Below are positions 3,200 through 3,984 of a DNA stretch of 18,497 nucleotides, piece after piece. The notes below the pieces were generated by a model. It was not told the origin of the DNA. It saw only the letters and a list, made by a program, of their open reading frames with translations, and did not search any database. Within the stretch, counting starts at the first letter, position 1. The number at the start of each line of letters is the position of its first letter. A program made the translations under genes and the position numbers. The stretch is from a virus, in the UHGV virus genome UHGV-0380155. One strand, written 5' to 3'.

Positions 3200-3448
3200 A
3201 TGAAAGGTGCAAGAGATATCAGTCCATTGGGGATTAGGATTCCAGACTATTTAAAGAAACGCATTCAGCAAGAAGCGGATAAAAACGGCAGATCAATGAA
3301 CTCAGAGATCGTGCTTATCCTTCAAAAACATGTTGATAATCTTGATGGCTCTCGCTCACTTGAAGGATTCGCTAACCAAGAAGCTGATAAATTCAAAGAG
3401 GCGCTACTTGAGACGCTAAAGACCATGTATGCTAAGGATGAAAAATAA
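3200..3448 (+). CDS. Mnt/Arc-like ribbon-helix-helix regulator (82 aa, RHH domain plus C-terminal extension)
   Basis: ATG at 3200 preceded by GGAGGAG. MKGARDISPLGIRIPDYLKKRIQQEADKNGRSMNSEIVLILQ... is paralogous to the divergent RHH gene. Its stop overlaps the start of the next gene (TAATG). Confidence 0.75.
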   Translation: MKGARDISPLGIRIPDYLKKRIQQEADKNGRSMNSEIVLILQKHVDNLDGSRSLEGFANQEADKFKEALLETLKTMYAKDEK

Positions 3449-3984
3449 TGCTGCACACAATTCATTTCTTATGCCCCGTTAACACTGCCACTGTTGGGCA
3501 ACTTCAGAACCACTGTCTCACCGCATTATCTCAAGGCGCAACTGAATTAAATATCCATATATCAAGTCAGGGAGGGGAAACTGCCGCTGGCTTTACTGCG
3601 TATAACTTTCTTAAGTCACTCCCTGTTACCGTTAGAACTCACAACATAAGCAATGTTGAATCCATAGCTAATATCGTTTTCCTGGCTGGCTCAGAACGTT
3701 TCGCAAACCCATTATCAAGATTCCTGTTACATCCTCTATTATGGTGCTTTGCCTCCCCAGCCGCCGACCATGCCAGATTGAGAGAGTACGGGAAATGCCT
3801 CGATAACGATCTTGATCGCTTCGTTGAGACGTTCAATATCGACATCGGAACCCATATTAGGTGGGCATCCCTGATAGCAGACTCGACCATTTTGGATGCT
3901 AACAAGGCTCTTGAGCATGGCATAATTAATTCCATAAAAACTGCAAGGCTGGCATCCAATCAGGCAAACTGGTGGGTTGTTTGA
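3448..3984 (+). CDS. ClpP/crotonase-fold (S14-like) serine peptidase homolog, function unknown
   Basis: 178 aa. The segment SNVESIANIVFLAGSERFANPLSRFLLHP aligns by eye with the ClpP active-site region GQAASMGAFLLTAG...RVMIHQP (Ser and His conserved). Translationally coupled to the RHH gene; AAGGA SD. Confidence 0.65.
   Translation: MLHTIHFLCPVNTATVGQLQNHCLTALSQGATELNIHISSQGGETAAGFTAYNFLKSLPVTVRTHNISNVESIANIVFLAGSERFANPLSRFLLHPLLWCFASPAADHARLREYGKCLDNDLDRFVETFNIDIGTHIRWASLIADSTILDANKALEHGIINSIKTARLASNQANWWVV

Follow-up and report, generated by a model that had tools for sequence, protein, structure and literature searches.

ClpP1 of Pseudomonas plecoglossicida (PpClpP1) is an N-terminally truncated ClpP peptidase that forms a homotetradecamer with an axial pore of 42.7 Å (PMC12900304). 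Its active site comprises Ser73, His96 and Pro151, of which the Ser and His are essential and Pro151 is dispensable, and its peptidase activity is ATPase-independent, with an efficiency 13-fold below that of the canonical paralogue (PMC12900304). PpClpP1 does not bind ClpX, and assembles with the canonical ClpP2 into a hetero-tetradecamer that is more active, also with ClpX (PMC12900304). Accessory ClpP paralogues in hetero-tetradecamers are likewise found in Listeria (ClpP1/2), Mycobacterium (ClpP1P2) and Streptomyces (ClpP homologues, including the ClpP of acyldepsipeptide (ADEP) self-resistance). These are full-length and chromosomal, no report places any of them among phage accessory genes, and among accessory paralogues the whole N-terminal gating region has been reported missing for PpClpP1 alone. 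Here, we describe a short ClpP-like gene in virus genome UHGV-0380155, within a stretch of 18,497 nucleotides (the window) that contains a lambdoid prophage. The gene (3448–3984, plus strand) encodes a predicted PpClpP1-type serine peptidase of 178 residues and follows a gene for a ribbon-helix-helix (RHH) repressor. The original prediction, made from the sequence of the window, had described this pair as a ClpP-fold peptidase homolog coupled to an RHH regulator.

Fold, active site and family of the ClpP-like protein

The 178-residue protein matched the Pfam family CLP_protease (PF00574) at 44.4 bits against a cut-off of 20.2 (expect value (E) of 2e-11), with residues 24–165 aligned to profile positions 37–180 of 182. 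An AlphaFold2 (AF2) model, calculated with 48 homologues in the input, has a mean predicted local distance difference test (pLDDT) score of 94.2 and contains a long helix, equivalent to the ClpP handle helix, at residues 108–132. Foldseek comparison of this model gave template modelling (TM) scores of 0.94 to PDB entry 9UXT, about 0.83 to E. coli ClpP, and 0.82–0.85 to many ClpP crystal structures. On the strength of the model, the protein is confidently predicted to adopt the ClpP α/β fold with its handle helix, in agreement with the fold originally proposed from an alignment by eye.

The entry 9UXT is PpClpP1, which is by far the best relative of solved structure (9uxt_A, E 1.6e-35 over residues 3–175, 38% identity). 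The phage protein resembles PpClpP1 in the full-length homology, the size of about 180 residues, the lack of an N-terminal loop and of helix A, a Ser-His pair whose third partner is not acidic, and the conserved motifs SSxGG, THN..ES and RF..HP.W. The two differ at the third position, where Pro151 of PpClpP1 aligns with Ser146 of the phage protein, and the oligomer, the hybrid with canonical ClpP and bortezomib binding are known for PpClpP1 alone. Judged from these alignments, the phage protein belongs among the short ClpPs of the PpClpP1 type. These form a large family, with 524 clusters at E ≤ 1e-10. A search of the BFVD viral folds returned only distant ClpP-like matches, at 25% identity or less.

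We compared the active site to that of E. coli ClpP by profile–profile alignment, using a reference sequence confirmed to be identical to PDB 3mt6. Ser72 and His95 correspond to Ser97 and His122 of E. coli ClpP, the same pairs that had been matched by eye, whereas the position of Asp171 is occupied by Ser146. Neither Ser72 nor His95 varies among 48 close homologues, in which the Asp171 column holds Ser, Ala or Thr. In a wider alignment of 124 sequences (122 representatives of clusters at 50% identity, plus PpClpP1 and E. coli ClpP) Ser72, His95, Gly42-Gly43 and Arg84 are present in every sequence, and the Asp171 column is made up of Gly, Ala, Ser, Glu, Pro or Arg, with no conserved acid. The expected conservation of the Ser and His is borne out by both alignments; a complete Ser-His-Asp triad is not found in the ClpP-like protein. 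The oxyanion-hole glycine motif (Gly42-Gly43) is intact, and the catalytic residues are predicted to be the Ser72-His95 dyad. Listeria ClpP1 also lacks the Asp and has an Asn at that position (as cited in PMC12900304).

Relative to E. coli ClpP (MEROPS S14, PF00574), the phage protein has thus kept the fold, the aligned Ser and His, the oxyanion Gly-Gly motif and the handle helix at about 20% sequence identity, and differs in the missing Asp171, gating loops and helix A. The first residues of the phage protein correspond to ClpP strand β1, and the N-terminal axial loops and helix A, which serve in pore gating and ATPase engagement, are absent. Members of the family have a median of 5 residues ahead of query residue 3, where the precursor of E. 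coli ClpP has 40. As had been noted, the gene is shorter than that of ClpP, because about 27 N-terminal residues of mature ClpP, comprising the axial loop and helix A, are missing. Tyr60 and Tyr62 of ClpP line the hydrophobic docking pocket for the IGF/IGL loops of ClpX and ClpA; in the alignment with E. coli ClpP these residues are replaced by Asn35 and His37. The NCBIfam equivalog models for ClpP, TIGR00493 and PRK00277, were missed widely, at 19.2 bits against a cut-off of 308.6 and 31.3 bits against 249, respectively. By these features and scores, the 178-residue protein falls outside the canonical ClpPs. What is known of it is overstated by its RefSeq name, "ATP-dependent Clp protease proteolytic subunit", since canonical ClpP features are missing and the equivalog score is failed.

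The ratio of nonsynonymous to synonymous substitution rates (dN/dS) of the gene is 0.07–0.14 in pairwise comparisons with diverged homologues, where dS is unsaturated. This places the open reading frame (ORF) far beyond chance, and it is a real gene under purifying selection. The copy in the window is intact and the same as the common allele, although the prophage itself is defective. These values argue against a functionless relic, as does the intact ORF in 126 of the 128 E. coli genomes that carry the gene.

The ClpP fold in a phage protein also brings to mind the ClpP-related prohead proteases, of which the gene could be a displaced or vestigial copy. The best PHROG match is indeed PHROG 94, "head maturation protease" (E 7e-21), the NCBIfam model Clp_rel_HeadMat (NF045542) is matched at 49.3 bits, and the copy in the P22-like phage phiv205-1 carries the label "head maturation protease" in GenBank. 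However, the phage protein shares with the NF045542 and PHROG 94 proteins a distant ClpP-fold homology and a phage origin, while its NF045542 score lies well below the cut-off of 120, it has no scaffold or capsid fusion, and its gene lies outside the head module and antisense to the late genes. Portal or capsid genes never adjoin the ClpP-like gene in the contexts that we examined, the prophage in the window has its own S78 protease–capsid fusion (15473–17410), and P22-like phages need no protease. We therefore rejected the head-protease reading on the family score and the genomic context, as the original prediction had done from gene position, and regard either a displaced protease or a relic as scarcely credible.

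The mnt operon of a P22-type immI cassette

The RHH gene in front of the ClpP-like gene (3200–3448, plus strand) encodes an 82-residue protein of the Pfam family Arc, whose best PDB match is the Mnt repressor of phage P22 (1mnt_A, over residues 4–74). Its stop codon TAA (3446–3448) shares one base with the ATG of the ClpP-like gene (3448–3450) in the sequence TAATG, so the overlap described originally is present, and the Shine-Dalgarno sequence AAGGA of the ClpP-like gene (3434–3438) falls within the final RHH codons (AAG GAT ...). Divergent to this pair lie an Arc-type RHH repressor gene (2950–3090, minus strand; 46 residues, Pfam Arc at 49.1 bits) and the antirepressor gene ant (2187–2888, minus strand), which encodes KilA-N and P22_AR_C domains in 233 residues and is shortened by an amber codon. 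The sar antisense RNA (2890–2955, plus strand) matches Rfam RF00262 over its full length at 67.6 bits, against a gathering score of 43, and overlies the arc–ant junction with its terminator hairpin at 2920–2951. The cassette in this lambdoid prophage therefore keeps the antisense control of P22, and mnt, arc, sar and ant together form a complete P22-type immI module in divergent arrangement.

The control region between the two repressor genes (3091–3199, 109 bp) contains operator-like repeats and promoter-like sites. Three copies of CTACAC(C/T)GTG lie at 3105–3115, 3126–3136 and 3162–3172, the third of them inside the palindrome CTACACTGTGTAG at 3162–3174. A promoter scan found a leftward σ70-like promoter, TTGACT (3150–3145) and TAGTAT (3128–3123), and a rightward candidate may be formed by TTTAAA (3140–3145) and TACACT (3163–3168), which match the consensus at 8 of 12 positions. 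The recognition strands of the Arc-type and Mnt-type proteins, APLGIRIP and SPLGIRIP, are nearly alike, which fits the repeated operator, and from the repeats we predict that operators are shared within the cassette. The Arc and Mnt repressors of P22 use different operators; the Arc-type and Mnt-type proteins found here may instead share operator sites.

We compared the cassette to that of P22. Homologues of Mnt, Arc, sar RNA and Ant occur in the same divergent layout, whereas P22 lacks the ClpP-like gene, and the cassette in the window differs further in the near-identical recognition strands, the three near-identical operator repeats and the amber mutation in ant. It also differs in location, since it is inserted between the tail genes L (4041–4739) and K (1167–1943) of a lambdoid siphovirus prophage, in accord with the tail-gene insertion seen originally. 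Stx phages and others have different ant and arc genes at the same tail-gene site. In the P22 reference record the mnt transcript comprises mnt and orf59a, followed by a terminator and then sieA, and the ClpP-like gene, as the second cistron of the mnt operon, occupies the slot of orf59a. A GC-rich hairpin (4015–4032) between the stop codons of the ClpP-like gene and tail gene L, called as a minus-strand terminator by the scan, may serve both convergent transcripts.

The coupling to an RHH gene therefore stands as a start/stop overlap, but the RHH protein is Mnt of a full immI cassette (mnt, arc, sar, ant) rather than a regulator dedicated to the peptidase, whose gene would be a passenger cistron on the mnt transcript. 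The job of Mnt is to keep the antirepressor off. A protease that promotes induction by cleaving repressor, one of the effectors first suggested, seems unlikely as a product co-expressed with Mnt.

Distribution of the gene and state of its prophage

In the assembly collection, 7,904 blocks are indexed with a protein identical to that of the window. At each of the eight places shown, its gene directly follows an Mnt-type RHH gene within an arc/ant cassette. Seven of these are P22-like prophages, intact or disrupted by insertion sequences, in which the cassette is flanked by gene 16, for an injection protein, and the tailspike gene. Among the carriers are P22-like prophages whose tailspike is an endosialidase. 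Among 5,426 complete E. coli genomes the gene was found in 128, always on the chromosome and full-length in all but two. Six sequenced phages carry it, among them phiv205-1 and the plaque-forming lambdoid phage PhiR12_1 (record host K-12 MG1655), in which the order L, clp-mnt, arc-ant, K is that of the window. A Pectobacterium P22-like prophage has the same mnt–clp pair at 80% identity. In the Salmonella phage vB_SemP_Emek, the ClpP-like gene behind mnt (4528–4967 of that locus) is annotated as two short ORFs, orf77 and orf69; either this copy has a frameshift or its sequence contains a sequencing error. The stretch from the ClpP-like gene to gene 16 in the P22-like prophages (about 10586–12136 in loci L110–L117) is highly variable and contains a YafO-type toxin with a 188-residue neighbour, a P63C-domain protein, or small ORFs of no assigned function. 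It looks like a hot spot for accessory genes, where P22 has sieA.

The overlap of one base between mnt and clp recurs in 45 further viral-contig and phage loci. The Mnt DNA-binding domains at these loci are of at least six unrelated types, some linked Mnt alleles being identical to P22 Mnt over residues 1–52, and the part of Mnt common to the loci is the C-terminal end only, reduced in locus L037 to the last 12 codons with the Shine-Dalgarno sequence. Since only these C-terminal codons are common, the exchanged unit seems to be clp together with its translation-initiation region.

An RHH gene immediately precedes the ClpP-like gene only within the clade of homologues that share about 80% identity or more, and none was found directly upstream of the homologues at 52–75% identity. 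Homologues at 52–58% identity, in the called-gene contexts that we read, stand alone, on the strand opposite to the neighbouring phage genes. The lone gene lies between the Rz and terminase genes in Klebsiella-type lambdoid prophages, between N and erf beside the immunity region in Proteus, and inside myovirus tail or lysis modules in Pantoea and Chromobacterium. A rough survey of neighbour strands at 78 dereplicated loci agrees with this lone antisense placement. The ClpP-like gene is a temperate-phage accessory gene (moron), and the mapping of neighbourhoods that had been suggested as a check leads to accessory-gene sites, and not to head modules, in the contexts examined. In one Enterobacterales clade at 52% identity (loci L094–L101), a 182-residue ORF without a Pfam match (about 5374–5922, plus strand) precedes the homologue by 78 nt on the same strand and could be its partner gene.

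Two groups of relatives are chromosomal. The Pseudomonas clade, which includes PpClpP1, lies beside KGG and DUF6555 stress genes, in contrast to the phage-borne gene of the window with its coupling to mnt, and we rejected the idea that PpClpP1 is prophage-borne on account of this neighbourhood. The KGG-repeat and DUF6555 flanks of the Pseudomonas genes (L118–L121) hint at a role in a stress regulon, which is absent from the discussion in the PpClpP1 paper. Massilia copies follow a gene that reads from its sequence as hydroxyisourate-hydrolase-like and have no phage context.

These contexts bear on the original suggestion of an abortive-infection or toxin component. In a type II toxin-antitoxin or abortive-infection system of this kind, the antitoxin would be the RHH protein and the toxin the ClpP-like protein. 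An RHH gene upstream with a stop/start overlap is the canonical layout of such pairs, and the conservation of only the C-terminal end of the RHH protein with the peptidase gene, while the DNA-binding domain varies, could be read in the same way. However, the RHH protein has a known job as the Mnt orthologue with divergent arc, sar and ant, and the common part in L037 is just the 12 codons that carry the Shine-Dalgarno sequence. The two genes do not co-occur obligately, given the more distant homologues without an RHH gene or, at 52–58% identity, without any partner gene in the contexts read. PpClpP1 was expressed in E. coli and purified (PMC12900304), and at E ≤ 0.1 neither the ClpP-like protein nor the two RHH proteins had a match among the defence models of PADLOC-DB 2.0. 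We therefore consider a toxin pair very improbable.

The prophage in the window is decaying in two ways, as judged against strain TOE17. The amber codon in ant is a change from CAG to TAG (minus strand, 2187–2189, first base 2189), one base different from TOE17. It shortens the protein from 309 to 233 residues with the cut inside P22_AR_C, the intact allele would run from 1959 to 2888, and the mutation may stabilise the lysogen. A deletion of about 4.1 kb, with its junction at 17991–18025, has brought the lysozyme gene together with the 3' portion of terL. The spanin and lysis genes, an HNH gene and the gene for the small terminase are lost, along with the 5' portion of terL, and the resulting ORF (17474–18343) encodes a fusion of a lysozyme domain with the large-terminase nuclease domain. 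The prophage is therefore defective.

Other features of the window concern its tail and head genes. A full-length OmpC-family porin gene (4938–6074, minus strand; Porin_1 E 3e-142, ompC in the PGAP annotation of TOE17) is inserted between tail genes M and L, as a second accessory gene in the tail operon. The S78 (HK97-type) prohead protease is fused to the major capsid domain in a protein of 645 residues (minus strand), whose gene lies upstream of the portal gene (13897–15261) in the direction of transcription, an unusual order. A 353-residue ORF after the portal gene (12839–13900, minus strand) has no clear Pfam family and contains an internal repeat of about 162 nt around 13305–13709, the copy number of which is not the same in TOE17; in the PGAP annotation of TOE17 this ORF and the portal gene appear together as one "frameshifted portal protein". 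In TOE17, sodC (Cu/Zn superoxide dismutase; 17586–18326 of its locus) lies between tail genes J and I, and the corresponding site of the window (348–428) lacks it.

Possible roles in the lysogen

We propose that the gene provides lysogens with a PpClpP1-type short ClpP from the mnt operon, which alters Clp-dependent proteolysis to the benefit of the prophage, and consider this proposal about evenly balanced between right and wrong. It builds on features that the data support directly, namely the fold, dyad, N-terminal shortening, family, operon position, accessory contexts and purifying selection. Lysogens would make the protein together with Mnt, its gene being read antisense to the late tail operon. 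Going by its homologue PpClpP1, the protein would most likely assemble into heptameric rings whose pore is wide and open and whose own peptidase activity is weak, and it would probably not recruit ClpX or ClpA by itself. It may act alone on unfolded polypeptides or, alternatively, stack onto a host ClpP ring and so change degradation by host ClpXP and ClpAP in the lysogen. The benefit to the phage could be immunity, exclusion or the stability of lysogeny. The paralogues of Listeria, Mycobacterium and Streptomyces offer a likeness here, in that a second ClpP-type subunit may change the activity or the partner choice of the housekeeping protease.

Several observations weigh against this proposal. 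Identity to the chromosomal PpClpP1 is only 38%, so that its partner behaviour may not transfer, and the ring–ring sensor Arg beside Asp171 is, like the Asp, not conserved. The rightward promoter candidate is weak by consensus and was missed by the promoter scan. The absence of a PADLOC match counts here as well, and our literature search found no experiment on the window protein or on any enterobacterial phage copy. Nor did this search turn up anything relevant on a ClpP paralogue of phages or prophages in the contexts of immI, P22-like phages or CUS-3, or under the RefSeq accession; one paper on a "prophage-encoded clpP" (Staphylococcus pseudintermedius) only notes an annotation. The type of protein is already known, while its phage setting and likely role are undescribed in the literature found, and the present data do not yet indicate an unusual mechanism.

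The open pore and the accessory contexts would also suit a stand-alone peptidase of superinfection exclusion, in which a gate-less barrel made from the mnt transcript degrades unfolded proteins of an incoming phage, such as ejection or early proteins, with no need for host ClpP or an ATPase. The gene holds an mnt-operon slot adjoining the place where P22 has sieA, it is a single gene in most contexts, and those read are antisense to late genes, which are classic sites of accessory and exclusion functions. The homologue PpClpP1 has an open pore of 42.7 Å and ATPase-independent activity, although its intrinsic activity is low, 13-fold below canonical ClpP (PMC12900304). No exclusion phenotype is reported, no PADLOC model is matched, and the chromosomal Pseudomonas and Massilia relatives have no phage context. 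Overall, we find this explanation unlikely, though less so than any other alternative to altered Clp-dependent proteolysis.

The loss of the docking tyrosines and N-terminal loops suggests a different outcome of co-assembly, since the ring would block one face of a hybrid from ClpX and ClpA. A dominant-negative or sequestering paralogue could poison or cap host ClpP rings and lower ClpXP and ClpAP activity in lysogens, with the result that phage or host proteins, for example antitoxins or replication proteins, are stabilised. The reported effect of lambda RexB resembles such a lowering of host ClpXP and ClpAP activity. The lack of ClpX binding by PpClpP1 is consistent with a cap, but in this homologue, the only one tested, the hybrid is more active with ClpX and not less (PMC12900304). 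A cap needs no catalysis, whereas the invariant Ser, His and oxyanion glycines and the strong purifying selection suggest that catalysis matters. We regard poisoning of host ClpP as improbable, more so than stand-alone exclusion.

Returning to the proposal of altered proteolysis, its most specific form would make the gate-less paralogue a single-gene effector of lysogens in temperate phages of Enterobacterales, which co-assembles with host ClpP and reprograms proteolysis towards exclusion or the locking of lysogeny. We advance this form tentatively, as a rather doubtful extension of the general proposal. The idea is directly testable, because a plaque-forming carrier phage that grows on K-12 exists (PhiR12_1).

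The gene is widespread under the names "ATP-dependent Clp protease proteolytic subunit" and "head maturation protease", neither of which fits. Its placement in the PpClpP1 family ties an orphan phage accessory gene to concrete biochemistry, and in turn supplies this family with a natural context in phage immunity regions. If host ClpXP and ClpAP are altered in lysogens, a prophage could use one small gene to adjust how stable many regulators of host and phage are. If the protein reprograms proteolysis in a hybrid with host ClpP, this would represent a new class of phage takeover or exclusion, acting through the Clp core rather than through an adaptor or inhibitor.

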